A DNA stretch of 64,000 nt from Gemmatimonadota bacterium (GCA_965200165.1 OZ241352.1:2308756-2372755), one strand, 5' to 3'. Shown: positions 630 through 57,488, numbered from the stretch's first letter. Made by a program: numbers and translations. Notes: generated by a model not told the origin, from the sequence alone.

Positions 630-1097
630 ATGAAGCCAGTCTCCATGACCGTAAACGGCAAGGCGTGCGACGGTGTCGTCGAGCCCCGCACGCTCCTGGT
701 CCACTTCCTCCGGGAACACCTGGGACTGACCGGTACCAATGTAGGGTGCGACACATCGTCTTGCGGATCCTGCACCGTCCTGATGGATGGGGAGTCCGTC
801 AAATCCTGCACCGTCCTCGCGCTCCAAGCGGACGGCACGGACGTGACCACGGTGGAGGGACTCGCGACTAACGGCGACTGGCATCCCATCCAAATCGCAT
901 TCCACGAAAACCATGGGCTCCAGTGCGGCTTCTGTACGCCGGGCATGATGCTGGCCGCGGTGAGTCTCTTGGCCGAGAATCCGTCTCCCACCGAAGAGGA
1001 AATCCGCCTTGGATTGGAGGGCAACCTCTGCCGGTGCACGGGATACCATAACATCGTCAAGGCCGTCTCCGCGGCGGCCGAAGCCATGCGCAGCTAA
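630..1097 (+). CDS. [2Fe-2S]-binding small subunit of a xanthine dehydrogenase / aerobic CO dehydrogenase family molybdoenzyme (CoxS-like)
   Basis: ORF 387..1097 with start moved to ATG 630 ([11 protein letters not shown]) behind GGAAGGAGAG. Cluster motifs [12 protein letters not shown] (C-x4-C-x2-C), QCGFCTPGM and CRCTGY. Confidence 0.9.
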
Positions 1098-1120
1098 CAA
1101 CCCCGAAGGAGGTACGACGA

Positions 1121-19340: not shown

Positions 19341-19341
19341 A

Positions 19342-22293: not shown

Positions 22294-22304
22294 ATCCCAA
22301 GCCA

Positions 22305-36415: not shown

Positions 36416-36552
36416 TTCAATGAATCGTTCCGGTCTTGCCTGTGGTGCCAGACGTGACCATGGTAACATACCACATTCAGGGTTGTGGGCGGGAGCGCGG
36501 CATAGTCCCCTCTCGTTGGTTACGGGCCATTCGGAAGATAAGGGAGAAGGTC

Positions 36553-41663: not shown

Positions 41664-41929
41664 GAGTTTCTCCTTCCACGGACGGAAACCTATTCGTTAG
41701 CCAGCTTCTCAGATTAACCCTGACTATCCTCGTTAGTCCAGACTTTCGGCGGTGTCGGGGTGAAATCCGAGGGAGGTGCCGAGAGAGGGTGCCGACGGCG
41801 GATGCGAAGTGACATTGTTATGTCGACGGTGGCCGCCGCTGGATAGGGCGGTGCCGGCAGCCGGGCGAATTTTCGGAGGAGACCCGGTTGGCACCTACGC
41901 CAATACACCCACGCCAATAAAGGAGAGTG

Positions 41930-43312
41930 ATGGGCATCATGACCTTCCGGCGGGCCTTGTGTCTGGCAATCGTAGTGCTGGGGACGAGTGTGTTCGTCAC
42001 GACGAAGCTGGCCGCACCTGAAGGGGCGGAGCACGATTCCCCCGCTGTGGCCGCTCCCCACGATATCCCCGCCGACGTGACTGTCCGCGTGTTTGTCAGA
42101 CCGGTCGATACCCAGCTTCACATGCTTATACGAGTCCCCTTGGAGGCAATGCGGGACGTGGATTTCCCCCAGTATGGGCGCGGTTATCTGGACTTGGATG
42201 CAGCCGGTCCCTTCCTTAGGGACGCTGCGCAACTCTGGCTTGCCGACTATGTCGAAGTATTCGAAGAGGATCGCCGGTTGGCGGTTCCCGAGATACGCCA
42301 GGTCCGCGTCTCCCTGCCTTCCGATCGCTCCTTCCGTTCCTACGAAACCGCCGAAGCGCACTTCACCGACCCCGGATTGGATCCGAACCTTGATCTTCCG
42401 TGGCGACAGGCCCTACTCGACGTGTGGCTTGTGTACGACATTGAATCGGAAGAGTCGCGCTTCTCGATGAACCCGGGATTCGCTCACCTTGGCCTACGCA
42501 CCGTCTCCGTCCTGCGTCTCTTGGCACCCGACCGACCGGAGAGAGTGTTCCAGTACCTGGGTGACCCGGGGCTCGTTCGGCTGGATCCTCGATGGCACCA
42601 GGCCGTCCTCCGCTTCGCGATCCTCGGGTTCGAGCACATCCTGGACGGGATCGATCACATCCTCTTCCTCCTATGTCTTCTCATCCCGTTGCGCCGAATC
42701 TGGGCAGTTGTACCGGTGGTCACGTCGTTCACGGTCGCTCACTCTATCACTCTGATCGCCTCCGCCTTCGGATTCGCTCCGCGCGCTCTGTGGTTCCCGG
42801 CACTCATCGAGACTCTGATCGCGCTGTCCATCGTCTTTATGGCCGTCGAAAACATCATCGGTCATCGGCCCCGGCGGCGGTGGGCGGTGGCTTTCGGATT
42901 TGGCCTCGCGCATGGGTTCGGGTTCTCTTTTGTCCTCGCGGAGACGCTGCAGTTTGCGGGTTCGCACCTGGTCGCTTCGCTGTTGGCGTTCAATGTGGGT
43001 GTGGAGATTGGGCAGTTGGTCATTGTCGTCATTGCGATGCCGTTGCTGGGCTGGATCTTCCGCGTGTGGGACGTGGGGCGGGTCGGAACTATCATCCTCT
43101 CGGTCTTGATCGGGCACACCGGCTGGCACTGGATGACCGACAGGGGATCGGAGCTGCTCGCGTATGACTTTAGTTGGCCCCCGACCAGCGGAGAATTGTG
43201 GAGCACCGTGACGCGATGGGGACTCCTGCTGCTCCTGGTCTTGGGAATGGGGTTCGCCCTCGAACGCGGGTTTCGGTACCTCTCCTCCCGACGTCAAGGA
43301 AGTCAAGAATGA
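41930..43312 (+). CDS. HupE/UreJ-family membrane protein (putative Ni/Co transporter) with ~200-aa N-terminal exported domain
   Basis: AAGGAGAG SD at 41920..41927, with GTG 41927, ATG 41930 and ATG 41939 as possible starts. Signal peptide. GFEHILDGIDHILFLLCLLIP is the HupE signature (HxxxGxDH). Six further TM helices. Confidence 0.8.
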   Translation: MGIMTFRRALCLAIVVLGTSVFVTTKLAAPEGAEHDSPAVAAPHDIPADVTVRVFVRPVDTQLHMLIRVPLEAMRDVDFPQYGRGYLDLDAAGPFLRDAAQLWLADYVEVFEEDRRLAVPEIRQVRVSLPSDRSFRSYETAEAHFTDPGLDPNLDLPWRQALLDVWLVYDIESEESRFSMNPGFAHLGLRTVSVLRLLAPDRPERVFQYLGDPGLVRLDPRWHQAVLRFAILGFEHILDGIDHILFLLCLLIPLRRIWAVVPVVTSFTVAHSITLIASAFGFAPRALWFPALIETLIALSIVFMAVENIIGHRPRRRWAVAFGFGLAHGFGFSFVLAETLQFAGSHLVASLLAFNVGVEIGQLVIVVIAMPLLGWIFRVWDVGRVGTIILSVLIGHTGWHWMTDRGSELLAYDFSWPPTSGELWSTVTRWGLLLLLVLGMGFALERGFRYLSSRRQGSQE

Positions 43313-43440
43313 CGTATCGACTGCGGGGAGATGACAGGTTTGGGGGAGTGTGCGTCTGGCGGAGGGACGCCACAAAACAGAATTTGCCAAGGGGTGGAGG
43401 CAACGACACGACTGCGAGCTATAACGAGAGGAGAGGCGGC

Positions 43441-44508
43441 ATGTTGAAACCAGGAATCGCGAAGAACGGCCCCGACGGAGGGACGCTGCTGGGGAGAGTG
43501 CTGTTGTTATGCGGAGTCGGCCTTGTTGGAACCGGGTTGGTTACCCCCGGTCCGGTCGGTGCTCAGTTGACGGCCCCCAATCCGTACCGTGCTGCCGATG
43601 GATGGGGCGATCTCCCGGAGGGCCGGTCCTGGGGGGCGACCAGTGCCGTTTTCCCGACACCCGGTGGGGAGATGATCTGGGTGGGCGAGCGCTGCGGGGC
43701 GAACGTCTGCGTGGGCAGCAACGATGACCCGGTGCTTCTGTTTGATTTGGAAGGAAACTTGGTGCGCAGCTTCGGGGCGGGCCTGATCGCATGGCCCCAC
43801 GGCATGTTCGTGGAGCCGGACGGAAGCGTGTGGCTCGCCGATGCGACGGGGTTCGCTGCCGTGCCCGAAGGATGGGGGCACGTCGTTTACAAGTTCAGCC
43901 CCGAGGGCGAGGTCTTGATGACCCTCGGCGAGCGCGGCGTGGCCGGGGGTGGAGAGACTCACTTCACCAAACCGTCAGATGTTCTAGTGGCACCCGACGG
44001 GAGCATCTTCGTGGCCGATGGGCATGATGCGGGCGGCAACAACCGGATTGTGAAATTCGACGGCGATGGGACGTATCTCATGGAGTGGGGCCAGACAGGA
44101 ACGGCAAATGGCGAGTTCAGGGATCCGCATGCATTGGCAATGGATTCCCAGGGACGCCTTTTCGTGGGGGACCGTGCGAATAGCCGGATACAGATCTTTG
44201 ACCAGGAGGGCAACCACCTCGAGACCTGGCACCAATTCGGCCGCCCGAGCGGCCTCTACATTGACGAAAACGATGTCCTTTATGCGACCGATTCGGAATC
44301 GAATGCGGGAAGGAACAAGGGGTGGCTGCGAGGGATTTACATCGGCGATGCGCGGACCGGTTGGGTGACTCACTTCATCCCCGACCCGGAGCCGGACCCG
44401 GACTCGTCTGGTACGAGCGGGGCTGAGGGCATCGCCGTAGACCGGCACGGGCACATCTATGGAGCTGAGGTAGGGCCCCGGCAGATGCGGAAATACGTCA
44501 AGCGCTAG
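43441..44508 (+). CDS. NHL-repeat beta-propeller protein (amidating-lyase-like), exported; paralogue-like to 40464..41663
   Basis: ORF 43174..44508 with start moved to ATG 43441 behind GAGAGGAGAGG. Signal LLLCGVGLVGTGLV. Blades GSVWLADATG, GSIFVADGHDAGGNNRIVKFDGDGTY, GRLFVGDRANSRIQIFDQEGNH, DVLYATDSES, GHIYGAEVGPRQMRKY. Confidence 0.8.
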   Translation: MLKPGIAKNGPDGGTLLGRVLLLCGVGLVGTGLVTPGPVGAQLTAPNPYRAADGWGDLPEGRSWGATSAVFPTPGGEMIWVGERCGANVCVGSNDDPVLLFDLEGNLVRSFGAGLIAWPHGMFVEPDGSVWLADATGFAAVPEGWGHVVYKFSPEGEVLMTLGERGVAGGGETHFTKPSDVLVAPDGSIFVADGHDAGGNNRIVKFDGDGTYLMEWGQTGTANGEFRDPHALAMDSQGRLFVGDRANSRIQIFDQEGNHLETWHQFGRPSGLYIDENDVLYATDSESNAGRNKGWLRGIYIGDARTGWVTHFIPDPEPDPDSSGTSGAEGIAVDRHGHIYGAEVGPRQMRKYVKR

Positions 44509-44530
44509 CAGTACCGTAGACAGCGAAACT

Positions 44531-44551
44531 CCGGGGCCAACGAAGCCCCGG
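44531..44551 (+). terminator. GC-rich hairpin between the NHL gene and the endostatin-like gene (terminator-like, no U-tract)
   Basis: CCGGGGC-CAACGAA-GCCCCGG: perfect 7-bp stem and 7-nt loop, 23 nt after the stop at 44508. No T run follows, so terminator function is uncertain. Confidence 0.25.
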
Positions 44552-44610
44552 GGACAACGATGACAACCCTGGAACACTTACGGAACCCGAAACAGCGGAG
44601 GTCTGGGAAC

Positions 44611-45300
44611 ATGCGAAGAACGATGGGAATGTCGGCCCTGGTGCTGGCAATGATAGGGGTCGCTGGACCGGCGGTTAGCCCGGCGAGTGCCCAAGACGAG
44701 AGGACTAGTTTCTTCATTACGAGTTCCAATCCCGGGGACGGCGCCGATCTCGGAGGGCTCGATGGGGCCGACGCGTTTTGCGAAAATCTGGCTATGGCGG
44801 CCGATCTTCCGGAAAGGACCTGGCGCGCCTACTTGAGCACCACGGGAGAGGGCGGCGTGAACGCCCGTGACCGCATCGGGCCGGGGCCGTGGTACAACAC
44901 CGAAGGCACTCTCATCGCGAGAGACGTGGACCACCTCCACAGCAACGGCCCTAACCTCACCAAGGCGACGATCCTCACGGAGACAGGAACCCCCGTGAAC
45001 GGCCGCGGAGACACTCCTAACCAGCACGACATCCTCACCGGATCCCTAATGAACGGGATGGCCTCGGCCGACGAAGGCGACACTACCTGCAGCAACTGGA
45101 CGTCCAGCGGGGAGGGGAGCGCGCTGGTGGGTCACCATGATCGCATCGGCGGCGGTCAGAATCCCACCTCCTGGAATCAGGCCCACGGATCGCGGGGTTG
45201 CAGCTTGGCAGATCTCAGGGGTACGGGTGGAGACGGTCGTTTCTACTGTTTTGCCGTCGACGGTCCCGGTGAGAACTCGCTCCGCGATCGGAGACGCTGA
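44611..45300 (+). CDS. secreted endostatin-like / DUF1554-like (C-type-lectin-fold) protein
   Basis: ORF 44560..45300 with start moved to ATG 44611 (MRRTMGMSALVLAMIGVAGPAVSPASAQ). By eye it aligns to collagen XVIII endostatin: GLDGADAFC..TWRAYLST versus GIRGADFQC..TFRAFLSS, ILTGSLMNG versus VWHGSDPNG, TCSNWTS versus YCETWRT, GC..RFYCFAV versus SC..YIVLCIE. All four Cys are conserved. Confidence 0.55.
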   Translation: MRRTMGMSALVLAMIGVAGPAVSPASAQDERTSFFITSSNPGDGADLGGLDGADAFCENLAMAADLPERTWRAYLSTTGEGGVNARDRIGPGPWYNTEGTLIARDVDHLHSNGPNLTKATILTETGTPVNGRGDTPNQHDILTGSLMNGMASADEGDTTCSNWTSSGEGSALVGHHDRIGGGQNPTSWNQAHGSRGCSLADLRGTGGDGRFYCFAVDGPGENSLRDRRR

Positions 45301-45325: not shown

Positions 45326-46951
45326 GTGAGGGCCCGTAGCGAGTTTGACGTAGTAGTGATCGGAGGGGGGCCGGCGGGTTGCTCCGTGGCATCCTTCCTC
45401 GCCCGCCGAGGACACACCGTGGCACTTGCGACTCGCCCTGAGCCGCCCGCGCCATGGCTCGGGGAATCCATACCGCCGTCGGCCCGCAAGCTTCTCGCTA
45501 CGGGAGGCATGTTGGAAGTCATGGAGCGGGCGGGCTTCGTGCAAAACCTGGGGAACGTGGTGTGGTGGGCGGACACCTCCGGCCGCGAGGAAAGATTCCC
45601 AGCGGGGTCACACGGGTTCCATGTGCAGCGGCGGGAACTGGAAAGTTTGTTCCAGCGGTCGGTGCGGGCGGCTGGCGCGACGGTCCTGTCGGAGGGACCC
45701 GTAACGAGCGTTTCCCGTTCGAAAGGCGAGGACTGGTGTGTGAGCGCGGCCGGTGGAGTCGAATGGCGCGCCAACTGGGTGGTGGATGCCTCTGGGCGAG
45801 CGGGCGTGGTGGCTCGCAAGGGACTCCGGATAAACGAGACCGAACTGTCCACCCTTGCGCTGGCCGCCGAGTGGCGGGGAGGAGCGAGAGCACCTGGGTA
45901 CACTCTCGTCGAGAGTTACCGTGATGGCTGGGCCTGGTCGGTGCCGACATCCGCAAATACCCGTTGCGTTACAGTCATGTTCGATCCCCGACGTACCGGT
46001 GCAGCACGGGGGCAGTCGGGACTCATGGATCTGTGGCGGTCGGAGCTGGACAAGGCTGGCCGTCTGTCGGAGCTGCTCTCCGACGGCGCCGTAACGGGAC
46101 CCGCCCGTGTCTGCCCCGCCTCGGTTTACCGCGCTGTCCGGTATGCCGAACCCGGCCTACTCCTCGTAGGCGACGCCGGCTCCTTCCTCGATCCCCTGTC
46201 GTCGTACGGAGTGAAGAAGGCCCTGTCATCGGCGTGGTTGGCAGGAGTGGTGCTGAACACCCTTCTTTCGGAGGAGGAGATGACCTCTCCCGCCCTCGCG
46301 ACGTACCACCAAAAAGAAGAAGAGGTCGTGCGGACATGCGCACGCGAGGCGCTTTCCTTTTTGCGCCACGCAGCACGGGTCCACGGCGACGAGTTCTGGG
46401 TGTCCCGGTCGCGGGCCGCCGAAAAAGCAGGGGCACAGAGGGGCAGCAGCGAGGAGGCTCCAACGCTGACAGACTCGGAGGCTGAAGGGTTCCTGGCAGG
46501 GGAAGGTGTTCGTGCGGCATTCGAGGCCATGCGTACGACTGACCGGATCCACTTCAAAGCTGGACGAGGGGTAAGAACAGTTCAGCGACCGGTCGTCGTC
46601 GGGGACCGGATGCGTTTGGAATCACACCTGATAAGTGAGCGTTGTCCGCGGGCTACCCGGTTTGTGAGGGGAATTGACGTCCTCGAGGTTGTGGCTCGGG
46701 CGTCGAAGGTGTCGGGAGCCGACCGGGTGCCGGACATCTTCGAAAGCTGCCGGCGGGAGATGTATCGGCGAGACCATTCGATGAGCCTACCCGATTTCCT
46801 CGCCGTTCTTTCGTTTGCGGTGACTGCCGGCTTTCTGGAGATAAAGCCCGAAGGGGACGCCACAAATCACATATGGCGCCGTTTTGAGCAAGTGCTCACC
46901 TTAGATGTACCAAACGAACACCCAAGCGACCGCCCACAGGGGGATGGATGA
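45326..46951 (+). CDS. qhpG: FAD-dependent monooxygenase of the qhp cluster (QhpG-like; halogenase-like fold)
   Basis: GTG start. DVVVIGGGPAGCSVASFLARRG (GxGxxG), GWAWSVP (WxWx[IV]P-like), LLVGDAGSFLDPLSSYGVKKAL. ATGA overlap with qhpA. Assignment rests mainly on operon context. Confidence 0.7.
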   Translation: MRARSEFDVVVIGGGPAGCSVASFLARRGHTVALATRPEPPAPWLGESIPPSARKLLATGGMLEVMERAGFVQNLGNVVWWADTSGREERFPAGSHGFHVQRRELESLFQRSVRAAGATVLSEGPVTSVSRSKGEDWCVSAAGGVEWRANWVVDASGRAGVVARKGLRINETELSTLALAAEWRGGARAPGYTLVESYRDGWAWSVPTSANTRCVTVMFDPRRTGAARGQSGLMDLWRSELDKAGRLSELLSDGAVTGPARVCPASVYRAVRYAEPGLLLVGDAGSFLDPLSSYGVKKALSSAWLAGVVLNTLLSEEEMTSPALATYHQKEEEVVRTCAREALSFLRHAARVHGDEFWVSRSRAAEKAGAQRGSSEEAPTLTDSEAEGFLAGEGVRAAFEAMRTTDRIHFKAGRGVRTVQRPVVVGDRMRLESHLISERCPRATRFVRGIDVLEVVARASKVSGADRVPDIFESCRREMYRRDHSMSLPDFLAVLSFAVTAGFLEIKPEGDATNHIWRRFEQVLTLDVPNEHPSDRPQGDG

Positions 46952-48633
46952 TCCGACTTGCTGCCACCGCAGCCATTGCGCTAGTCGTTTCCGCCGTCTC
47001 CGCCGTCGTCTGCGAGGCTCAGGCTCCCCAGTCGGATGGCCCGTCTCGATCACCGGTCGCCGAAGCGGAAGACGTCGGGTTCCCGATCGAGAACCAGATC
47101 ATTGTACGGCGGTGTCAGAGGTGTCACGAGCGCGACGACGAAGGCCGTATGTCGCGGATCTCGTACGAGCGGAAGACCCCCGAGGGTTGGCAGACTTCGA
47201 TTCGTCGCATGTTGGCCCTCAACGGCGTGCAGCTTTCCCCAAACGAAGCCCGCGAGGCCGTGCGGTATTTGGCCAACTACCAGGGCCTCTCGCCCGAGGA
47301 GTTGGAACCGGGTCGATTCGAGGTCGAACGCCGGCTGATTGACCATGTTTACGAGGCCAACCGGGATGTGGAAAACACCTGTATCCAGTGTCACAGCATG
47401 GGCCGCGTGATCACGCAGCGTCGTACCAGGGAAGAGTGGGAGCTGCTTATGGCGACCCACCGAGGTCTATACCCGTTGGTCGATTTCCAAGCATTCCGCG
47501 GCGGCGGTGGTTTTGAGCCGATGGAGGAAGCGATCGATCACCTCTCGGAGGCATATCCGCTCCGGACCCCTGAGTGGTCGGCATGGTCGGCGTCGATGCG
47601 ACCACCACGACTGTCCGGGACCTGGGCGCTTTCGGGATTCGAACCGGGTAAGGGGCGCCTCTTCGGGAAGGTGGAGATTACCCCAGGTGGCGCCGCAGAC
47701 GAGTTCCGGACGACGGCTTCGTGGACGTGGGCCGAAACGGGCGAAACCGAGGACCGGGCGGGACAGGCGATCGTATACACAGGGTACCAGTGGAGGGGTC
47801 GCTCGAATTCGGAAGCGACCGACGCCATGCGCGAGGTGATGGTGGTCGACCGGAGCTGGCGCACAATGACCGGGCGCTGGTTTGCCGGTGCGTACGATGA
47901 GTTTGGGCCCGACGTGACCCTTACCCGGATGGAGGCGGAGGGTGCCGTGACAGCGGTTCATCCCCAGGCCCTCCTGCGGGGCCAGCAGCACGAGGTTTCG
48001 GTGTATGGGGTCAACATGCCGGCTGCGGGAGCGCCGACCGAGTTTGACTTTGGTCCGGGGGTCAGCGTGGAGTCGGTGGTGTCGGCCGGCGACTCGGAGG
48101 TGCGACTAACACTTGACGTCGCCGCGGACGCCGCCGTGGGGTCTCGGGATCTCTTTGCGGGCACCACCTTTGTGGAGGGTGCGGTCAGCGTACACGATGG
48201 CGTAGATCGCATCGAAGTCCTACCGGAGGCCGGGATGGCACGCGTCGGCGGAGCGAACTTCCCGAAGGGGTACCAGGCATACGACGCGATCGGATGGGAT
48301 GACGGTGCCGACGGAGAGGCGGGCACGGAAGATGACGTAAGGCTGGGCCGGGTCCCCGTCACCTGGAGCCTAGAGGAGTACACGGCCACCTTCGACGACA
48401 ACGACCTAGCATATGTGGGTACCCTGTCTGCAGAGGGGACCTTTGAACCGGCAGCGGACGGACCCAACCCCGAACGTGATGGTATGCGCAATAACGTCGG
48501 AGATGTGTGGGTGGTAGCCACGTACGACGGCGGGGAAGAACCGCTACGCGCACGTGCTCACCTGATCGTCACTGTGCCGCTGTACCTGAGGTGGGAACCG
48601 TGGCGCGGCTTCCCCACGGAGCTGGTTCCATGA
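46948..48633 (+). CDS. qhpA: quinohemoprotein amine dehydrogenase alpha subunit (di-haem cytochrome c)
   Basis: Sec signal MIRLAATAAIALVVSAVSAVVCEAQA. Two CXXCH motifs: CQRCH at 47113..47127 and CIQCH at 47380..47394. ~400 aa of beta-rich domains follow. Operon context. Confidence 0.85.
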   Translation: MIRLAATAAIALVVSAVSAVVCEAQAPQSDGPSRSPVAEAEDVGFPIENQIIVRRCQRCHERDDEGRMSRISYERKTPEGWQTSIRRMLALNGVQLSPNEAREAVRYLANYQGLSPEELEPGRFEVERRLIDHVYEANRDVENTCIQCHSMGRVITQRRTREEWELLMATHRGLYPLVDFQAFRGGGGFEPMEEAIDHLSEAYPLRTPEWSAWSASMRPPRLSGTWALSGFEPGKGRLFGKVEITPGGAADEFRTTASWTWAETGETEDRAGQAIVYTGYQWRGRSNSEATDAMREVMVVDRSWRTMTGRWFAGAYDEFGPDVTLTRMEAEGAVTAVHPQALLRGQQHEVSVYGVNMPAAGAPTEFDFGPGVSVESVVSAGDSEVRLTLDVAADAAVGSRDLFAGTTFVEGAVSVHDGVDRIEVLPEAGMARVGGANFPKGYQAYDAIGWDDGADGEAGTEDDVRLGRVPVTWSLEEYTATFDDNDLAYVGTLSAEGTFEPAADGPNPERDGMRNNVGDVWVVATYDGGEEPLRARAHLIVTVPLYLRWEPWRGFPTELVP

Positions 48634-50117
48634 GCTCCTCGGCTCCCATCCCGCACGAGCACCCCACCGGGATGGCGGGCGTGGTCCCCGACTCCAGGCT
48701 CTGCCGTCGCGAATTCCATTCTTTTGAAGCCGGCGATCAGCGTTTCATCTATCTCGTTCCATCAGCGGGGATCTTCCGACTCGGTCCGGAGGCTGCGGCG
48801 ATCTTGGACATCCTCGCCTACGGTCCTCGCACCCCCGGTGAAATCATCGATTTCCTTCGCGAACGATTCTCCTCCGAAGCGGTGTGGAGGGGTATGGGGG
48901 AGCTCCGGAACATCAGGGCTATTGGGGACTTCGGGGTGCCCGTGGAAAGTGTGGCAAACGATCTCCCTCCCGAGGGGTTCCCGCTCACCACGATGGTCCT
49001 CAACGTCACCAACAAATGCAATCTCGCCTGCACCTACTGCTACGAATATGGAGAGGACAAGATCGTCGACCCGACCTGCACCGACGATCCGAAGTTCATG
49101 TCCGACTCGACGGCGCGCGATGGAGTCGAGTTCCTATTCCGGGAATCCGGCCCGGTGGAAGTCGTCCACCTCACCTTCTTTGGTGGGGAGACACTGCTCA
49201 ATTTCAACGTTCTCCAAGAAACCGTGGCGTACGCCAGGAGTCGCGCAGAGGAAGTTGGAAAACGAATCGAGTTCAGCCTCACGACGAACGCAACCTTGCT
49301 GAAGCCCGCCATAATCGAATGGCTCGCTGAGAATGAGATAGGGGTCACGGTGTCGATTGACGGTCCCAAGGAGATGCAGGACCGCATGCGCGTCTTCCAC
49401 AGCGGAAAAGGGTCCTACGAAGTGGTTCAACCACGTATCAAGGAGCTCTTGCGTCGTCATAAGACAAGGCCGATCGGGGCACGGGTCACCCTCACCCGGG
49501 AGAACATCGACATTCCCCGCATTTATCGACATCTGGTGGATGAGATGGGTTTTTGGGAAGTTGGTTTCGCGCCGGTAACGACGGCTTCCGGACGCGATTA
49601 CGAGATCGAACACGAGGGATACACCCGGATGTTGAGGCAGTTCGAGGAGCTGGCTAATGAATGGCTTGAGGCTGCCGTCGAAAACCGCCACCACGGATTT
49701 TCAAACGTCAAAGACACCCTGGAAGAGATCCACAAGGGGGTGAGCAAGGCCTATCCGTGCGGAGCGGGATTGGGTCTCATGGGTGTAACTACCGGGGGCG
49801 ACGTGTCCCTCTGTCACCGCTTCGCCTACTCCGACGACCACTCGTTTGGGACCGTGGCCGAGGGCATCGATCGGGATCGACAGCGGGACTTTCTTGAGGC
49901 CCACCATGTTAGCAAGAAACCCGAATGTCATGTTTGCTGGGCCCGCCCCATCTGTTCGGGGGGGTGTTACCACGAGGCGCATACGAGATACGGAGAGACG
50001 ACAGCCCCCAATTTGCACTTTTGCAACTGGGTACGGAGCTGGACGCATACGTGTTTGGAGGTCTACGGAGAGTTGTCACAGCGTAATCCCGGGTACTTGG
50101 CTCGGTTCGACCATTGA
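48630..50117 (+). CDS. qhpD: radical SAM / SPASM-domain peptide-modifying enzyme (QhpD, thioether-forming)
   Basis: ORF 48507..50117 with start moved to ATG 48630 (ATGA overlap with the qhpA stop). CNLACTYC at 49017..49040. C-terminal auxiliary-cluster cysteines CGAGLG..LCHRF..CHVCWARPICSGGCYHEAH. Confidence 0.9.
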   Translation: MSSSAPIPHEHPTGMAGVVPDSRLCRREFHSFEAGDQRFIYLVPSAGIFRLGPEAAAILDILAYGPRTPGEIIDFLRERFSSEAVWRGMGELRNIRAIGDFGVPVESVANDLPPEGFPLTTMVLNVTNKCNLACTYCYEYGEDKIVDPTCTDDPKFMSDSTARDGVEFLFRESGPVEVVHLTFFGGETLLNFNVLQETVAYARSRAEEVGKRIEFSLTTNATLLKPAIIEWLAENEIGVTVSIDGPKEMQDRMRVFHSGKGSYEVVQPRIKELLRRHKTRPIGARVTLTRENIDIPRIYRHLVDEMGFWEVGFAPVTTASGRDYEIEHEGYTRMLRQFEELANEWLEAAVENRHHGFSNVKDTLEEIHKGVSKAYPCGAGLGLMGVTTGGDVSLCHRFAYSDDHSFGTVAEGIDRDRQRDFLEAHHVSKKPECHVCWARPICSGGCYHEAHTRYGETTAPNLHFCNWVRSWTHTCLEVYGELSQRNPGYLARFDH

Positions 50118-50152
50118 CCCGGGGTCGCTCGCCGGCGACCTGCGGCTGGAAC

Positions 50153-50160
50153 AAAGGAGG
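50153..50160 (+). promoter_or_regulatory. Shine-Dalgarno sequence for qhpC
   Basis: AAAGGAGG, 8 nt upstream of TTG 50169. It is the strongest SD I saw in the cluster. Confidence 0.6.
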
Positions 50161-50168
50161 ATGACGCA

Positions 50169-50549
50169 TTGCATCACGTAAAGGGAATCAACCAGAAGGC
50201 GGGTCGCATTGAGGCCCAGCTCGAGATGGAAGCGGAGCGGGATTTGTCCCCTGAGGATGTCGATGTGACGGGTTCGAATGACGTCGTGGGCTTGGAAAGT
50301 CGGCCGCCGGAGGACGGACCACACTTTCCGCTCGGGTGCTCATTGGTATTTGCGCCGGGGTGGGAGGTGGACTCCAGCGGGGGTACCGCGGGTCTCTGCC
50401 AGCCGGTGGAACGCGATCTCTTCGACTGTCATCTCGCCTGCTTCTGGCCTGCTCACGTTCCAGACCAGCTCAATCACTCACCGGACTGGACGGCCAAGTG
50501 CGCAGCAGCTCAGAAGGATTGGCGAAAACTGGATCTCGTTTTTCCGTGA
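50169..50549 (+). CDS. qhpC: quinohemoprotein amine dehydrogenase gamma subunit precursor (CTQ- and thioether-bearing peptide)
   Basis: Core GCSLVFAPGWEVDSSGGTAGLCQPVERDLFDCHLACFWPAHVPDQ..DWRKLDLVFP. C57, E66, C77, D83, C87, C91, W93 (TGG 50445..50447) and D99 reproduce the spacing of Cys7/Glu16, Cys27/Asp33, Cys37, Cys41, Trp43 and Asp49 of the Paracoccus gamma subunit. Start is TTG 50169 (strong SD) or ATG 50226. Confidence 0.9.
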   Translation: MHHVKGINQKAGRIEAQLEMEAERDLSPEDVDVTGSNDVVGLESRPPEDGPHFPLGCSLVFAPGWEVDSSGGTAGLCQPVERDLFDCHLACFWPAHVPDQLNHSPDWTAKCAAAQKDWRKLDLVFP

Positions 50550-51688
50550 TAACGGCTCCTGTTCGATCCGCTTTCCGCCGGCTTTTCTTCGTCGCCACCC
50601 TCTTCCTTCTCGTCCTTGACGGGTGGGGTTCCTCCGTGGAAGCCCAGACAGCTTCCGAGGCGCGGGGGGGAGAGCAACGCACCGCGCACTGGTACATGGG
50701 CACCTACAGCAACGAAGTGCTGGTGTGGGACGAGGCGACCGAGGAGGTGGTGGATCGAGTCCCCGTGAAGCATGCGATCCCAACGCGGATCAGCGTGTCG
50801 AAGGATCGGTCTCGGCTTTTTGTCCTTGATGCCTTCTTCGAGACGATGGAGATCGTGGCGCTCGATTCCAAGGAATCTCTCGGTGAGTTTACACTGAGCG
50901 AGGGCGATACGCGCCGCTGGATCGCGGAGTACAGAGTACATCCGTCCAACACTTGGATGGCGATGACAGTCCGTTCACGAACCCGGCTAGCCGATCGTTA
51001 CCGGATTGATGAGCCCGTGCTCCTCGCGTACGACCTGGAGTCCTACAGCGTAAGGGATACAATCCCGTGGCCGGACGACGACGCCGACCAGATCGGTGCG
51101 TTCCGTTTTTCGCCCGATGGCGAGACCCTCTACATGTTTGCGGACGATCTGGTGGCGGTGGACTCCGAAACGTACGAAGAGCTCGACCGATGGGAGATTT
51201 CAGAGCCATTCGAGCCGGGCCTGGGCCGGATGTCGCTGCCATTTGCGCAGAGTCCATACCAGGAGGCCGAGGGGGTGTACACAGGACTCTTCCGAATGCG
51301 GGATCCGGTACAGAACCGCAACCTGATGGGCGTGGCGACCGTGGACATGGCTGCGCAGAACGTGGATTTCCGTCCCATTGGACCCTCCGACGGGGTCACC
51401 TTCTCGCTTTCGCCGGATGGAACGAAGGGGTATGGACTCAAATCCCAGATCGGGTCGTACGAGTTGTGGAAGTTCGATCTGGATGCGGGGAGGGTGGATG
51501 CGCGGATCCCCTTTGCCGGCCGTCCTCGCATGGCGCTGATGCCGAGTGCGAATGGTGAGTACCTCTACATCTATAACGCTGGGAACACCATCGATATCTA
51601 CGACGAGGAGAACTTTGAGTATCTCCGTACGGTTGAATTCGACGCGGACATGACGCGGGTAGTCGTAGTCCCCGATCCGGGGAGGTGA
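50546..51688 (+). CDS. qhpB: quinohemoprotein amine dehydrogenase beta subunit (7-bladed beta-propeller)
   Basis: ORF 50336..51688 with start moved to GTG 50546 (GTGA overlap with the qhpC stop). This gives signal peptide VITAPVRSAFRRLFFVATLFLLVLDGWGSSVEAQ. YVTN-like blades (LFVLDAFFETMEIVALDS, FRFSPDGETLYMFADDLVAVDSET, YLYIYNAGNTIDIYDEENFE). Confidence 0.8.
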   Translation: MITAPVRSAFRRLFFVATLFLLVLDGWGSSVEAQTASEARGGEQRTAHWYMGTYSNEVLVWDEATEEVVDRVPVKHAIPTRISVSKDRSRLFVLDAFFETMEIVALDSKESLGEFTLSEGDTRRWIAEYRVHPSNTWMAMTVRSRTRLADRYRIDEPVLLAYDLESYSVRDTIPWPDDDADQIGAFRFSPDGETLYMFADDLVAVDSETYEELDRWEISEPFEPGLGRMSLPFAQSPYQEAEGVYTGLFRMRDPVQNRNLMGVATVDMAAQNVDFRPIGPSDGVTFSLSPDGTKGYGLKSQIGSYELWKFDLDAGRVDARIPFAGRPRMALMPSANGEYLYIYNAGNTIDIYDEENFEYLRTVEFDADMTRVVVVPDPGR

Positions 51689-53457
51689 CGGGCCGGGAGA
51701 GCCCCTTCCGAGACCCGCATCTGAGGCGGGCCCTCGCATACATTCGGCCCCGTGCCGGGTCCCTGGTTCCGGTTGTCCTACTCTCCCTGACTGGGACTGG
51801 CCTGGGTTTGGTACTTCCCTGGCTTTCCAAAGTGATGGTGGACGACGCCATCCTGGCAGGTGATTTCCCCCTTCTCGCAACCACGGTGGGTTGGTTCGTG
51901 GTGATCACGGTCGGGATTTTCGTCACCAATGTGCTCAGCGGCATGCGGTATACGCGGGTGTCGGCCGAAATCCTGTTTGACATGCGGCTGACTCTGTACC
52001 GGCACCTCCAGTTGCTGTCGCCGCGCTTTTACGCCGGCCGTCCCCTCGGGGACATAGTCTCTCGGATCAACAATGACATTGGCGAGGTTCAGCGCGTAAC
52101 GAGCGATGCGCTCCTTGCCAGTTTCGGGCACGTGTTATTCCTGGCCGGAACGGTGGGCATGCTGGCGTGGCTGGATCCAGTGCTTTTTGCCGTGGGGTGC
52201 GTGGCTCTGCCTCCTAGCCTGTGGGCCTTGATTCGGTACCGTCGACAGCTGGAGGGACGCGTGCGGACCCTTCGGGAGCGCAGCGCCGAGATAGGGAACT
52301 TCCTGATCGAGACGATTCAGGGGATGAGATTGGTGGTTGCGAGCAACGCTCAGGAGCGGGAAGTCGCGCGCTTCGGCCGGCACAACGCACACTTTGTGAA
52401 GGCGCTACTGTCGATGCGTTTATTCACGTATCTGGCGGGTGGGTTGCCGGGTTTGTTGCTGCAAACCGGGACGGCGGCCGTCTTCCTGTACGGTGGGTAC
52501 AGGGTCATCGGCGGCCAGATGACGCTGGGGACCTTCGTGGCGTTCATGGCTTACCAGATGCGTCTCCTGTCTCCGGTGCAGGGACTGATGGGTTTGTATG
52601 CGAACCTCGCCAGTGCCCGAGCCTCTCTCGTCCGGGTGCATGAACTGCTCGACACCCCTCCCGATGTGGCAGACGCGCCGGGAGCCGAGCGCTTGGTGGC
52701 TCCAGCCGGAAGGATTGCCTTGGAGGGAGTTGGACTCGACTTTGGGCGGGGAGGACCGGTACTCGACGGAGTGGATCTCCAGGTCGAACCCGGGGAGGTG
52801 GTCGCCCTCGTGGGGCCCAGCGGAAGCGGCAAATCGACGATAGCGGATCTCTTGCAACGGCATCTGGATCCAGACCACGGGAGGTTGCTGCTCAACGGCG
52901 TGGACCTGCGTCGGATTGCGTTGGCAGACGTGCGGCGGCATGTGATGGTTGTGAATCGGACGCCTTACTTGTTGCACTCTTCGATCCAGGACAACGTGCT
53001 CTATGCTCGTCCTGAGGCTTCCACCGAGGAGGTGGAGGAGGCGCTGCGCGCCGCCGATCTCGGGGATTTGATAGACGCGCTGCCGGAGAAGGTGGACACC
53101 GTGGTCGGTGAACGGGGTCGGCAATTGTCGGCTGGGGAACGCCAGCGGCTGGCCGTGGCGCGGGCGCTAGTCGCGGATACGGCGGTGTTGGTGCTGGATG
53201 AGGGGACAGGAGCGTTGGATCCCGCTTCCGAAGGCCGCGTGCTTGCCAGTTACGCCAAACTGATGAGGGGACGGACCACGATCATCATCACTCACAGAGA
53301 GGAACTGGCGCGGCGGGCCCATCGGGTGATGGTCTTGGATCAGGGGCGAATCGTGCAGGAAGGTCGTCCAGAAGCGTTGGCGAACGAGCCGGGTCCGTAC
53401 CGTGCTCTGTTTGCAGGAAGCCTTGATGGCGGGTTGCAGTCGAACGGGCGCGGCTAA
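51685..53457 (+). CDS. qhpF: ABC exporter, fused permease/ATPase (QhpF-like)
   Basis: GTGA overlap with qhpB. Six-TM exporter domain. Walker A GPSGSGKST, signature LSAGERQRL, Walker B VLVLDEGT. Confidence 0.85.
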   Translation: MTGRESPFRDPHLRRALAYIRPRAGSLVPVVLLSLTGTGLGLVLPWLSKVMVDDAILAGDFPLLATTVGWFVVITVGIFVTNVLSGMRYTRVSAEILFDMRLTLYRHLQLLSPRFYAGRPLGDIVSRINNDIGEVQRVTSDALLASFGHVLFLAGTVGMLAWLDPVLFAVGCVALPPSLWALIRYRRQLEGRVRTLRERSAEIGNFLIETIQGMRLVVASNAQEREVARFGRHNAHFVKALLSMRLFTYLAGGLPGLLLQTGTAAVFLYGGYRVIGGQMTLGTFVAFMAYQMRLLSPVQGLMGLYANLASARASLVRVHELLDTPPDVADAPGAERLVAPAGRIALEGVGLDFGRGGPVLDGVDLQVEPGEVVALVGPSGSGKSTIADLLQRHLDPDHGRLLLNGVDLRRIALADVRRHVMVVNRTPYLLHSSIQDNVLYARPEASTEEVEEALRAADLGDLIDALPEKVDTVVGERGRQLSAGERQRLAVARALVADTAVLVLDEGTGALDPASEGRVLASYAKLMRGRTTIIITHREELARRAHRVMVLDQGRIVQEGRPEALANEPGPYRALFAGSLDGGLQSNGRG

Positions 53458-53464
53458 CCCGAGC

Positions 53465-54187
53465 GTGGCCGGCCGCATCACCATCGCCGTAATCGACAGT
53501 GGGGTGCATCCGAAGCACCCTCACATCGGCCCGATGGGGAAGGGTTTCTCGCTTGTGTCGAGTCAGGGTGGCGAGGCGGATACGGTGGATCGGCTCGGAC
53601 ATGGCACTGCAGTGATGGCAGCGATACAGGAGAAGGCACCGGCGGCGCGCCTCTTCCCGGTTCGGGTGTTCGGCGAGACCCTGAAGACGGACGGAGATAC
53701 GCTGGCCAAGGCGTTGGAGAGGGCCTCACGCCAGGGGTGTGATTTGGCGAACCTCAGCCTGGGGACGCGGAACGCGGAGCGGGAAACCCTCTTGGGTCAA
53801 ACTGTGGAACGAGCCCTACAGCGGGGAACGTTGGTGGTCGCCGCCTTTGAGGATGCGGGAGTGCGGTGGCTGCCAGGGAGCCTTCCAGGGGTCCTTGGCG
53901 TGGGCGCCGATCCCAGTCTGCCACGACATGAGTTGCGGGTCGAGCAAGATTCGGGCCGGAGGGTGCTGTTCGCTTCGCCCTATCCTCGACCTATTCCGGG
54001 GGTGCCTCCCGAACGAAACCTGAACGGCATCAGCTTTGCCGTGGCCAACGCGACAGGGCTGTTGGCCCTCATCCTGGAGAACGACCTTTCTTTGAGGACT
54101 CCAGAGGAAGTGCTGGACGCCGCCTCAAACCCGATACCCCACACCAAGCCCGATACCCCGAGACACCAAGGGAGGGTAGTTCCATGA
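53465..54187 (+). CDS. qhpE: small subtilisin-like serine protease (QhpE-like leader peptidase)
   Basis: ORF 53402..54187. GTG 53465 is the first start after the qhpF stop; ATG 53426 would overlap it by 32 nt. Triad candidates are D in IAVIDSGV, H in LGHGTAVMA, S in NGISFAVANATG. Only ~240 aa. Confidence 0.75.
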   Translation: MAGRITIAVIDSGVHPKHPHIGPMGKGFSLVSSQGGEADTVDRLGHGTAVMAAIQEKAPAARLFPVRVFGETLKTDGDTLAKALERASRQGCDLANLSLGTRNAERETLLGQTVERALQRGTLVVAAFEDAGVRWLPGSLPGVLGVGADPSLPRHELRVEQDSGRRVLFASPYPRPIPGVPPERNLNGISFAVANATGLLALILENDLSLRTPEEVLDAASNPIPHTKPDTPRHQGRVVP

Positions 54188-55407
54188 AACCTCGCTGCGT
54201 GGCTATCGCCCGTGTACTCATCCTCGGAGCAATCTTGTCTGCGATGGCGGGCTGTGCTCCGGATGCAAGCGGTCCGTCCTGGCCGGGCACCACCTGGGCA
54301 GTGTCCACACCGGAAGCGGAGGGATTCGATCCCGGTGCCATTGATTCCTTGATCGCGGACATCGACTCCGGTCGTTACGGTCTCATCGATCACTTCCTCC
54401 TAATCCGAAACGGGCGTGTGGTGGCGAACCGTCGATGGGATCACGCAGCGGAATATGCCGAGATCCTCCGTGGGGTCGGGGATACCACTGATCATCAATA
54501 CAACTATGATCATCCAGCCTGGCACCCGTACTACAGGGAGACCGATCTCCATACCCTCCAGTCGGTTACCAAGAGCGTGACCTCGGTCGCCTTCGGCATC
54601 GCCGTGGATGAGGGTCACATCGCGAGCGTCGAGGCTCCGGCTTGGGAGTGGTTCGAATCTCTGGGGGTGGACATGACCGAACCTCTGCGGGCGGCAGCCA
54701 CACTCGAGGATTTTCTGACCATGCGGAGCGGGATCGACTGGGCTACACGGGGCCAAACTTATGACGACGATACGCACCCAACCGTGGAGTTGGAGGCCAG
54801 TGATCGGTGGATCGATTACGTGTTGGGACGCCCCGTCGAAACCGAACCCGGGACAGAGTTCGATTACAATGACGGAGTGAGTGTGCTCCTGGGGAAGATC
54901 GTCGGGGAGGCGACTGGACAGCGGCTCGACTCGTGGGCAGAGGAGCGTTTGTTTGGACCGATCGGAATCGATGAATACTACTGGAAGATTACGCCCGATG
55001 GAGAGGTGGACAGCGAGGGCGGTCTGTACCTGTCGGTCTATGACTTGGCCCGCGTCGGTTATCTGATGCTGCGCGGAGGTGATTGGGACGGGCATCAGAT
55101 CGTATCGCAAGAGTGGGTGGAGATGTCTACATTGCCGATCGTCGAGAACGTCGGGTACGGATACCAGTGGTGGGTCCCGGTTCGGGAGGGGGGTCGGGCA
55201 CGGGTGTTCGCGGGGAATGGCTACGGCGGCCAATTCGTCCACGTCGTTCCGGAGCACGACATCGTGTCTGTCTTTTTCGGGTGGACACTTCATGAGCGGC
55301 CCGAGTTATCCAGTTGGCTAGCGTTGCAGGAGCGGGTTCTTCCGGCCGTGATAGATGGTCAGGTAATCGATACTCAGGCCACCGATACCCAAGGAAGTGA
55401 CTCATGA
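54184..55407 (+). CDS. serine hydrolase of the beta-lactamase / D-aminopeptidase fold (S12-like), lipoprotein
   Basis: ATGA overlap with qhpE. Lipobox LSAMAGC. SxxK motif in LQSVTKSVTS. Typical family length (407 aa). Confidence 0.8.
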   Translation: MKPRCVAIARVLILGAILSAMAGCAPDASGPSWPGTTWAVSTPEAEGFDPGAIDSLIADIDSGRYGLIDHFLLIRNGRVVANRRWDHAAEYAEILRGVGDTTDHQYNYDHPAWHPYYRETDLHTLQSVTKSVTSVAFGIAVDEGHIASVEAPAWEWFESLGVDMTEPLRAAATLEDFLTMRSGIDWATRGQTYDDDTHPTVELEASDRWIDYVLGRPVETEPGTEFDYNDGVSVLLGKIVGEATGQRLDSWAEERLFGPIGIDEYYWKITPDGEVDSEGGLYLSVYDLARVGYLMLRGGDWDGHQIVSQEWVEMSTLPIVENVGYGYQWWVPVREGGRARVFAGNGYGGQFVHVVPEHDIVSVFFGWTLHERPELSSWLALQERVLPAVIDGQVIDTQATDTQGSDS

Positions 55408-57488
55408 AGCTTGGCCTTCGATTTGGCGGCGGGGTTCTTTCCGCCGTGAGCGGTTGGGCCGCCCCAGCTCTCTGGAGCGTCGCAATAGGCACCGGCGCCA
55501 CCTCACTCGTGGCCCAGGAACCCCAGGAACCACGGGAAGCCCGCCCCATGACGGTCGAGGATGTCCTCGAACTCCGGACGGTTTCGCAGCTTGCGGTTAG
55601 TCCGGACGGCAGCTGGGTCGCCTACGTGGTGTCCGAACGAAGTATGGAGGAGGACAGACTGGAGACTGACGTGTGGGTGGTCCCGTCGGACGGCGGTCCC
55701 GAGGACGCTAGGCAACTCACGTTTCGTCCGGGCTCCGACGGTTCTCCTCAATGGCACCCCTCCGGTGGGTGGCTGGCGTTCGCGTCTGACCGCGACGACA
55801 GGAGACAGGTCTATGGGATTCGACCCAATGGCGGTGAGGCTTGGCCCGTAACCTCCCATGAGACGGGCGTCGGGAGTTATCGGTTCTCGCCGGATGGCGG
55901 GAGCCTGGCGTTCGCGGCCAATCCCCCACCCACGGACGCCGATCGCGAGTTAGAGGAAGTGCGCGGGAGGCCGATGGTGTGGGATTCAGTCTATACGGAC
56001 CAGTGGTCGCACCTGTATGTGGCGGAGCTGAAACGCGACCGTGCCGATTCGGCTGTCCAGTGGTCTCCGGACGGAATGCACGTCCAGCAATTCGTATGGT
56101 CACCGGATTCGAAAGCGATTGCCTTCAGCGCTCGTGCGTCCCCCGTGCTGAGGACCGTGTACGACGCTGCCACCCATGTAACGACTGGTCCGGATGCAAC
56201 CCCCTTGATGGTCACCTCTCTTCCGGGGTCCGACGATCCGGTGGCGTGGCACGAGGATGTGGGGCTCATCGTTTCCGGATCGGGACAGACGCTAGGGACG
56301 TTTAACCGGCAGCTGTGGCGAGTGTCGGCTTCCGGCGAAGAGAGTCCTGGGACGCCCGTGTCGCTAACCGGCGATCTGGATGAGAATGCCAGATTCGTTC
56401 ATGCCGACGGGTCACGACTCATCGTGGCTGCGTCCCACCGCACCGGTGCGACCGTGTACCGGATTGATCTTGCCGACGGAGTGCCCACGGGGTTGCCGGT
56501 CGACCTCACGGATGGGAGCCGCTTCTACTCAAATGTGGTTGCCTCCGCAGATGGTGGGGTGCTCGCCTTTACCGCTGAGGACGGGCATTCGCCGGCTGAC
56601 ATCCACGCGACCCCGGAGAACACCTTCGCACCGTCTCGACTGACTGACGTCAACCCGCATGTGGCGGGTCTCGACCTCGGCGCGCAGCGAGTCGAACGGT
56701 GGATGTCACGCGCGGACGGAGAGCAAATCGAAGGAGTATTGACGCTGCCGGTCGGATATGTGGATGGAGACCGCGTGCCCTTGGTTCTCGTAATCCATGG
56801 TGGTCCGTCGGGAGTCTCATCCGACCGATTCCACGCCACCCGAGGCGCTTACCCGGTCCAGGTATACGCGGGTATGGGATTCGCCGTCCTCCAACCGAAC
56901 TACCGAGGATCGACAGGCTATGGCGAACGGTTCCGTGGCCTGAACCGAGGCGACATCTCCGGACGCGACTGGATAGACATCGATTCGGGCGTGGACGCGA
57001 TGGTCGAACGAGGAATCGCCGATCCGGAGCGTCTGGCGGTAAGCGGATGGAGCTTCGGCGGTCACCACACTTACTGGGGGATCACACAGACCGACCGCTT
57101 CAAAGCGGCGAGTGCCGGTGCGGGGGCCAATGACCTGATCTCGATGTACTCGCAGACCGACATCCCGGAGTTCTATCACACGTATCTGGGTCCCAAGCCG
57201 TGGGAAGATTGGGAGCTGTACGAAGAACGTTCGGCGTACCGACACGTTACGAATGTGACGACCCCGTTGTTGATTCAGGTTGGAGAGAACGATGAGCGTG
57301 TGCCCGCCGAGCAGAGCATCCAGTTCTTCGAGGCGGTCAGGGCGATTGGGAAGGCACCGGCCGAACTGGTGATCTATCCCGGACAACCACACGGCGTACG
57401 GTCACCGCGCCTGCAACGAGACCTCATGTCCCGCAACGTGGAGTGGCTGGCACGGTGGGTGCTGCGCCGTACGGAGATGGTGCCGTAA
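55404..57488 (+). CDS. S9-family prolyl oligopeptidase / acylaminoacyl-peptidase with N-terminal beta-propeller, exported
   Basis: ATGA overlap with the upstream gene. Signal peptide. PD40-like SPDGSWVAYV, WHPSGGWLAFASD, FSPDGGSLAFAA. Catalytic GWSFGGHHT, then ENDERVP and GQPHGV. Confidence 0.9.
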   Translation: MKLGLRFGGGVLSAVSGWAAPALWSVAIGTGATSLVAQEPQEPREARPMTVEDVLELRTVSQLAVSPDGSWVAYVVSERSMEEDRLETDVWVVPSDGGPEDARQLTFRPGSDGSPQWHPSGGWLAFASDRDDRRQVYGIRPNGGEAWPVTSHETGVGSYRFSPDGGSLAFAANPPPTDADRELEEVRGRPMVWDSVYTDQWSHLYVAELKRDRADSAVQWSPDGMHVQQFVWSPDSKAIAFSARASPVLRTVYDAATHVTTGPDATPLMVTSLPGSDDPVAWHEDVGLIVSGSGQTLGTFNRQLWRVSASGEESPGTPVSLTGDLDENARFVHADGSRLIVAASHRTGATVYRIDLADGVPTGLPVDLTDGSRFYSNVVASADGGVLAFTAEDGHSPADIHATPENTFAPSRLTDVNPHVAGLDLGAQRVERWMSRADGEQIEGVLTLPVGYVDGDRVPLVLVIHGGPSGVSSDRFHATRGAYPVQVYAGMGFAVLQPNYRGSTGYGERFRGLNRGDISGRDWIDIDSGVDAMVERGIADPERLAVSGWSFGGHHTYWGITQTDRFKAASAGAGANDLISMYSQTDIPEFYHTYLGPKPWEDWELYEERSAYRHVTNVTTPLLIQVGENDERVPAEQSIQFFEAVRAIGKAPAELVIYPGQPHGVRSPRLQRDLMSRNVEWLARWVLRRTEMVP

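Follow-up and report, generated by a model that had tools for sequence, protein, structure and literature searches.

Does the segment between positions 45326 and 54187 of a 64,000-nucleotide stretch of Gemmatimonadota DNA (GCA_965200165.1, OZ241352.1:2308756-2372755; here called the window, whose own numbering is used throughout) encode a quinohemoprotein amine dehydrogenase (QHNDH, EC 1.4.9.1) together with the enzymes that mature it, or does it only look like such a locus? An earlier note had read it as a qhp cluster. We conclude that the segment is very probably a complete and intact qhp cassette, which would allow its host, a Gemmatimonadota bacterium near Candidatus Palauibacter, to make a periplasmic QHNDH. 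The cassette is a correctly identified known system and a new member of a large, partly mis-annotated qhp lineage, carried by a Palauibacterales-like genome. The gene content proposed earlier is borne out by family hidden Markov models (HMMs) from NCBIfam, judged against curated equivalog cutoffs, by Pfam, by solved structures found in sequence searches of the PDB and by the fold of the beta subunit, compared with the PDB by Foldseek. The listing of open reading frames (ORFs) and the junctions read from the sequence give seven co-directional genes in the order qhpG-A-D-C-B-F-E:

45326..46951, + strand: qhpG, 541 aa, probable flavin adenine dinucleotide (FAD)-dependent peptidyl-tryptophan dihydroxylase, long CmlS-like form
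46948..48633, + strand: qhpA, 561 aa, di-haem cytochrome c-type alpha subunit with an N-terminal signal peptide
48630..50117, + strand: qhpD, 495 aa, radical S-adenosylmethionine (radical-SAM)/SPASM thioether-forming maturase
50169..50549, + strand: qhpC, 126 aa, gamma precursor, a leader followed by the cross-linked core bearing cysteine tryptophylquinone (CTQ)
50546..51688, + strand: qhpB, 380 aa, divergent seven-bladed propeller (beta subunit) with a signal peptide
51685..53457, + strand: qhpF, 590 aa, fused ATP-binding cassette (ABC) exporter, transmembrane domain plus nucleotide-binding domain
53426..54187, + strand: qhpE, probable small cytoplasmic leader peptidase of the subtilisin type, 253 aa (ATG at 53426) or 240 aa (GTG at 53465)

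ATGA overlaps link qhpG to qhpA (46948-46951) and qhpA to qhpD (48630-48633); because of the latter we place the start of qhpD at 48630, giving 495 aa, and not at the longest-ORF start, 48507. A 51-nt spacer separates qhpD from qhpC, whose TTG start at 50169 has a Shine-Dalgarno sequence, AAGGAGG, 7 nt ahead of it. GTGA overlaps follow between qhpC and qhpB (50546-50549) and between qhpB and qhpF (51685-51688); the first of these, in which the qhpB start overlaps the qhpC stop, sets the length of QhpB at 380 aa. At the last junction, qhpE begins either 7 nt beyond qhpF (GTG 53465) or 32 nt inside it (ATG 53426). The first choice yields the subtilase of about 240 residues described in the earlier note; the second yields 253 residues, the length returned by an independent gene caller, whose model in two other assemblies of the organism is identical (541/561/495/126/380/590/253 aa). 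The earlier description of seven genes joined by overlaps or by spacers of 51 nt or less is what the ORFs and their junctions give, and the motifs then quoted (CQRCH, CIQCH, CNLACTYC and the Cys-rich 126-residue peptide) are all present in the translations.

The gamma peptide supports the identification. It scores 117 bits against NF037958 (cutoff 50) and 115 bits against PF08992, and it can be aligned gap-free with the gamma subunits in the crystal structures from Paracoccus (1JJU_C) and Pseudomonas putida (1JMX_G), with 49-51% identity over the whole core. Residues C57/E66, C77/D83, C87, C91, W93 and D99 correspond to Cys7/Glu16, Cys27/Asp33, Cys37, Cys41, Trp43 and Asp49 of 1JJU_C. That the cross-link residues are kept with identical spacing had been claimed before, and the alignment of QhpC homologues proposed as a check upholds it: the peptide aligns over every one of them, and all eight cross-link and CTQ residues are invariant in 81 of 81 relatives. 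The leader encoded at 50169-50330 contains an insert of variable length and a conserved N-terminal motif, M-x-H-L-K-x-I-N-Q-K-A; the first cross-link Cys comes about 36-70 residues after the start codon in the clade, against 34 in Paracoccus. A conserved DVVG-L motif resembles the site at which QhpE cleaves in Paracoccus (VVA-M, between A and M), and by this likeness the leader would be about 41-50 aa long, longer than the Paracoccus QhpC leader of 28 aa (PMC7876137).

Alpha and QhpD both exceed their NCBIfam cutoffs, with 498 bits against TIGR03908 (cutoff 274) and 548 bits against TIGR03906 (cutoff 453), respectively. All four Pfam domains of QHNDH alpha subunits are found in the qhpA product (PF09098, PF14930, PF09099 and PF09100), and its best PDB match is 1JMX_A (E 1.6e-83), ahead of 1JJU_A (8e-68); the resemblance of the di-haem protein to QhpA therefore goes well beyond generic motifs. 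Its haem-binding motifs lie at residues 56 (CQRCH) and 145 (CIQCH), their four cysteines are the only ones in the mature protein, and a signal peptide, MIRLAATAAIALVVSAVSAVVCEAQ, was assigned by eye. In QhpD the CNLACTYC motif (CX3CX2C) lies at residue 130 and the C-terminus is a Cys-rich SPASM region.

Several results weigh against the identification and have to be set beside this evidence. The beta subunit reaches only 65.1 bits against TIGR03907, for a cutoff of 223.2 (E 5.8e-18, over the full length); no QHNDH beta subunit is among its PDB matches in a phmmer search, and its identity to the crystallised QHNDH beta subunits is only 17-18%. QhpG falls short of the cutoff of its top family (222.6 bits against NF049967, cutoff 240); in pairwise comparison it scores higher with CndH (102 bits) than with Paracoccus QhpG, 7CTQ (66 bits), and Foldseek ranks the halogenase CmlS (3I3L) first and 7CTQ second for its AlphaFold2 (AF2) model (predicted local distance difference test, pLDDT, 88.3). 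QhpE, too, is below the cutoff of its top family (152 bits against NF049966, cutoff 165). The cluster has no linked gene for a regulator, an aldehyde dehydrogenase or an electron acceptor. Finally, a scan for sigma-70 promoters and terminators found fewer sites than in shuffled sequence, so that promoters and terminators could not be placed, nor operon boundaries set.

Do these results describe a decaying or non-expressed remnant? The lack of a regulator in 64 kb, the three components below their family cutoffs and the paucity of promoter-like sites would all suit such a view. However, the seven ORFs are intact, retain their catalytic motifs, are tightly coupled and are identical in independent assemblies, and the sub-threshold scores are common to the whole clade, itself conserved across hundreds of genomes. 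We consider a remnant very unlikely. The statement in the earlier note that the window holds no qhpR-type regulator, a component of the operon as defined in Paracoccus (qhpABCDEFGR), agrees with our Pfam scans, in which the large ORFs of the 64 kb that were judged to be genes had no helix-turn-helix (HTH) or AraC domain; the gaps between genes are too short for another gene. When the ORFs flanking 82 loci were clustered, no accessory family recurred in more than 9 of them, which indicates that no regulator, aldehyde dehydrogenase or electron acceptor accompanies the cassette as a conserved partner. An Rfam scan of 40-60 kb found nothing.

For the beta subunit the fold decides. The AF2 model (pLDDT 86.4; predicted template modelling score, pTM, 0.83) retrieves 1JJU_B first among PDB structures (E 7.8e-20, template modelling score, TM, 0.72/0.80) and 1JMX_B second; the third-ranked match has a TM of 0.53/0.52, and the other listed matches all have a TMq of 0.56 or less. 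Because 1JJU_B and 1JMX_B rank so clearly first, the model identifies the qhpB product as a genuine, strongly diverged QhpB, and the propeller protein, like alpha, resembles its namesake beyond generic motifs. The protein has no Pfam match and contains no Cys. We collected 854 homologues, of which 44 were aligned; the closest named ones come from Candidatus Palauibacter sp. and from Gemmatimonadota metagenome-assembled genomes (MAGs), and the named homologues carry the labels 'hypothetical protein' or 'YncE'. A possible twin-arginine translocation (Tat) signal in QhpB (FRRLFF) was considered and rejected, as the RR pair is not conserved in the clade consensus.

QhpG raises the question of whether the segment might instead be a cluster for a ribosomally made peptide with post-translational modifications (RiPP) or a halogenated natural product, with the Cys-rich peptide as the secreted product and not an enzyme subunit. 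The public names of qhpG homologues ('tryptophan 7-halogenase', 'halogenation protein CepH') invite this reading, QhpD scores also against the ranthipeptide and SCIFF maturase models of NCBIfam, and the best fold match of QhpG is, as said, a halogenase. On the other hand, the next best family of QhpG, the CmlS halogenase, obtains only 111.9 bits, half the score of the QhpG model, and LodB and GoxB are weak HMM matches. The protein has the motifs GGGPAG and WAWSVP, and its Asn74, nearly invariant in the clade, aligns with Lys76 of CndH, the catalytic residue of that halogenase. The fold search itself is unable to separate QhpG from halogenases, CmlS and 7CTQ matching about equally. A match to CmlS in first place is in any case expected, since CmlS is also the nearest structural neighbour of Paracoccus QhpG, a protein with a C-terminal winged-helix domain (PMC7876137). 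The C-terminal 202 aa of the window's QhpG have no PDB match by sequence search; in the model this part forms a unit of three strands and three helices, consistent with that winged-helix domain. QhpG is typically 500-545 aa long in the clade, compared with 412-432 aa in Paracoccus, and in 67 related loci its gene immediately precedes qhpA. Since the peptide shares half of its core residues with crystallised gamma subunits, and dedicated alpha and beta genes stand within the same translationally coupled unit, we regard the natural-product explanation as effectively refuted.

The two remaining proteins of the cassette are an ABC exporter and a probable QhpE. QhpF contains PF00664 and PF00005, with a Walker A motif (GPSGSGKS), a signature (LSAG) and a Walker B motif (VLVLDE); it is 28% identical to the product of the ABC gene of the Paracoccus pPAN2 cluster and 44% to the Novosphingobium one, and the position of its gene is conserved across related loci. 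There was no QhpF-specific match in NCBIfam, where all hits were to other ABC exporter families, below their cutoffs. QhpE matches PF00082, has the triad motifs DSG, HGT and GISFA and lacks a signal peptide. In one relative with a beta subunit of about 50% identity (locus L001, 13165-15042), HipA-like/HTH and PIN/RHH toxin-antitoxin pairs sit between qhpF and qhpE, and the F-E junction therefore tolerates insertions.

How would the cassette work? We infer its chemical steps, its substrate and its co-transcription by homology with the Paracoccus and Pseudomonas systems, where the roles of QhpD, QhpE, QhpF and QhpG have been established experimentally (PMC7876137). QhpC would be translated with its N-terminal leader, through which QhpD would bind it and form three Cys-to-Glu/Asp thioethers (C57-E66, C77-D83 and C91-D99). 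QhpG would then dihydroxylate W93, which together with C87 would give CTQ; QhpE would cut off the leader and QhpF would export the knotted peptide. In the periplasm, gamma would assemble with the Sec-exported di-haem alpha subunit and the propeller beta subunit into an enzyme predicted to convert primary amines to aldehydes and ammonia, passing electrons from CTQ through the two haems to a soluble acceptor.

The same maturation could serve a QHNDH-like CTQ quinohemoprotein with a substrate or role other than that of the n-butylamine and phenylethylamine dehydrogenases of Paracoccus and Pseudomonas. One could think of polyamines, methylated amines or amino-sugars in marine and sponge habitats, or of a role besides growth on amines. 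The low identity of beta, which in the crystallised enzymes contributes to the substrate channel, is compatible with this proposal, as are three clade-specific invariant residues around the CTQ site of gamma (R82, D86 and H88) and the want, unlike in Paracoccus, of a linked AraC-type amine-responsive regulator or aldehyde dehydrogenase. However, the catalytic base D83 and the whole CTQ and cross-link scaffold are unchanged, alpha lies well above its equivalog cutoff and the neighbourhood points to no particular alternative substrate. A changed substrate thus seems improbable to us, and an amine dehydrogenase of the known kind is the preferred reading.

One feature of the gamma peptide has no counterpart in the crystallised enzymes. 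The peptide carries five Cys, and the fifth, Cys111 (50499-50501), is invariant in 81 of 81 relatives, as is Asp86 (50424-50426); in the gamma subunits of Paracoccus and P. putida, Ala takes the place of Cys111 and Gly that of Asp86. Cys111 is left without a disulfide partner within the enzyme, because the other four gamma cysteines are those of the known cross-links, mature alpha has haem cysteines only and beta has none. The simplest reading is an Ala-to-Cys swap that leaves a buried free thiol. It is conceivable, though unlikely, that Cys111 takes part in a fourth QhpD-made thioether, for example to Asp86, or acts as a functional thiol near CTQ, a chemistry unseen in the crystallised enzymes. 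If true, this chemistry would, together with the strongly diverged beta subunit, set the lineage apart as a second QHNDH type of distinct structure.

To what organism does the cassette belong, and is its gene order unusual? The earlier note judged the host to be non-proteobacterial, rightly so: every product has its nearest relatives in Gemmatimonadota, for the most part in Candidatus Palauibacter (order Palauibacterales). Compared with the closest species representatives, identity amounts to 49-51% for G, 65-70% for A, 79-80% for D, 73-77% for C, 67-72% for B, 71-76% for F and 58-61% for E; from values as low as these, 49% (G) to 80% (D), the host is a distinct species or genus. The G+C content stays near 62% all along the window and does not shift at the cluster. 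A scan based on the gamma alignment, covering one genome per GTDB species, used the clade motifs LCQPVERD and CFWPA[HQ]VP and found at least 600 stretches carrying them, at least 554 of them confirmed. The best 80 stretches are from Gemmatimonadota (Palauibacter, Longimicrobiales, Gemmatimonadales) and Acidobacteriota (Vicinamibacterales, Blastocatellia).

The survey of gene order and taxonomic spread suggested in the earlier note was carried out by tblastn of the window's proteins on these 80 loci and one obtained earlier (n=81), with a 40% coverage filter. All seven genes stand on one strand as G-A-D-C-B-F-E in 38 of the 81; the remaining loci, many of which are cut off by contig ends, have part of this series, unbroken and in unchanged order, and tblastn revealed no other order or strand among the 81. 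The order does differ from that of the Paracoccus pPAN2 locus, as the earlier note said; it is not unusual, being the norm, whole or in part, in 81 of 81 related loci. G-A-D-C-B-F-E is thus the normal order of a very large clade, and the gene order is no novelty. Arrangement, order and strand of qhp genes are known to vary, and the operon is present in more than 1300 species (PMC7876137). In five 20-kb loci of Longimicrobiales/Gemmatimonadota (L041, L045, L049, L057 and L058), A and G went undetected by tblastn under the 40% coverage filter, and the matches were limited to the C-B core, joined by D or F in some; incomplete clusters, sequence masking or the filter itself could account for this.

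The earlier expectation that automated annotation would mislabel the cluster holds for part of it. Public records name QhpG homologues 'tryptophan 7-halogenase', 'halogenation protein CepH' or a generic oxidoreductase, and beta bears the labels given above. The gamma peptide is named correctly by PGAP in relatives, and alpha and QhpD, being above their curated cutoffs, should be named correctly by automatic means as well. The annotation gap, with beta 'hypothetical' and QhpG a 'tryptophan halogenase', spans a lineage of at least several hundred species genomes, and because of these mislabelled genes genome-mining tools can misread the clusters as halogenated-RiPP clusters. No new mechanism is involved: publications already cover the enzyme, the pathway that matures it and the fact that its gene order varies. 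What the cassette adds is a predicted periplasmic amine-oxidising capacity, assigned from the sequence to a Palauibacterales-like Gemmatimonadota genome. Palauibacterales, an order of uncultured bacteria, have a wide distribution in marine sediments and sponges, and the main text of the description of the order does not mention amine oxidation (PMC10469786).

The surroundings of the cassette deserve a brief account. The chain of start-stop overlaps (ATGA/TAATG) runs past qhpE into three more genes:

54184-59197: downstream coupled genes for a beta-lactamase-family serine hydrolase, an S9 (Dpp5/Atxe2-like) peptidase and a DUF885 protein

We considered these as parts of the qhp system and rejected them, as none is linked to qhp in related loci; they are probably co-transcribed passengers. 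On the other side, only 25 nt separate qhpG from its upstream gene. Positions 41927-45300 encode a HupE/UreJ_2 membrane protein, an NHL-repeat protein and an exported protein of 246 aa, a trio that adjoins qhp in about 12 Palauibacter-like loci, mostly upstream of G and, in L013 and L025, downstream of E. The 246-aa protein has no match in Pfam, NCBIfam or the PDB; it is 75-83% identical among Palauibacter-like relatives and so more conserved than QhpG (49%).

Farther away, a three-subunit molybdenum hydroxylase of the xanthine dehydrogenase/aldehyde oxidase family, with 2Fe-2S, molybdenum cofactor and FAD subunits (387-4335), and a Zn-dependent alcohol dehydrogenase (7661-8710) are the window's only candidates for handling the aldehyde product, 40 kb from qhp. 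A molybdopterin oxidoreductase operon at 17706-23192, comprising a fused 4Fe-4S/NrfD subunit, a 983-aa catalytic subunit and a NarJ-like chaperone, is unrelated to qhp. Between 36436 and 40461 a TonB-dependent receptor is apparently split over three consecutive ORFs, which could reflect a frameshifted gene or an assembly error:

36436-37326, + strand: CarboxypepD_reg plus Plug domains
37301-38002, + strand: no domain
38053-40461, + strand: beta-barrel

It remains to compare the cassette with known systems. The CTQ oxidases LodA and GoxA (with LodB and GoxB) and the methylamine dehydrogenase (with MauG), whose cofactor is tryptophan tryptophylquinone, also owe a tryptophylquinone cofactor to a dedicated modifying enzyme; they have no thioether-knotted small subunit, radical-SAM enzyme or di-haem subunit, and the relation is one of analogy, not membership. 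For Paracoccus our reference is the annotated pPAN2 locus of Paracoccus pantotrophus (L082), which reads qhpG on the opposite strand, A-D-C-B-E-F, an AraC regulator, again on the opposite strand, and an aldehyde dehydrogenase. It shares with the window the seven functions, the core A-D-C-B and the spacing of the gamma cross-link and CTQ residues. The comparison with the Paracoccus Qhp proteins, which the earlier note had recommended, gave identities of 51% for the gamma core, 34% for alpha, 36% for QhpD, 29% for QhpE, 28% for QhpF and 28% for QhpG; tblastn did not detect a similarity between the beta subunits of the window and the pPAN2 locus. The Paracoccus qhpG is divergent, lies upstream and encodes 412 aa, whereas that of the window is co-directional and encodes 541 aa; the Paracoccus tail is E-F, followed by the AraC regulator and the aldehyde dehydrogenase, and that of the window is F-E with neither linked. 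The P. putida QHNDH (1JMX), whose system has a QhpCDG maturation complex, provides the best PDB match for alpha, a gap-free gamma alignment and a beta fold at a TM of 0.72/0.80, and its system differs from the window in the same points as that of Paracoccus. Its electron acceptor is azurin, and the window has no linked cupredoxin or cytochrome.

A cluster of this type is carried by a megaplasmid of Novosphingobium sp. RL4 (L083, a record of 1.8 Mb for which the PLSDB table gives one feature). It has a beta subunit of the window's type (25% identity, E 1e-37), the tail F-E, and a gamma peptide with the LCQPVERD motif and the fifth Cys. It differs in its order, A-D-C-B-(G-like)-F-E, compared with G upstream of A in the window, and in its alphaproteobacterial host, so that the cluster type is not confined to non-Proteobacteria. 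The QhpG-like ORF between qhpB and qhpF (13301-14590 of L083) makes this a third arrangement; the ORF matches the QhpG model in its C-terminal half only, and the gene may be frameshifted or the choice of ORF wrong. The public MAG clusters of Gemmatimonadota and Acidobacteriota (for example Candidatus Palauibacter L004-L009, Longimicrobiales and Vicinamibacterales) lack the window's downstream coupled genes but have its gene order and strand, its divergent beta, its fifth gamma Cys and its long QhpG. The cassette belongs with them to one lineage, present in Gemmatimonadota, Acidobacteriota and some Alphaproteobacteria and marked by the order G-A-D-C-B-F-E, the lack of a linked AraC regulator or aldehyde dehydrogenase, a strongly diverged beta subunit, a long QhpG and leader, and a fifth Cys in gamma.

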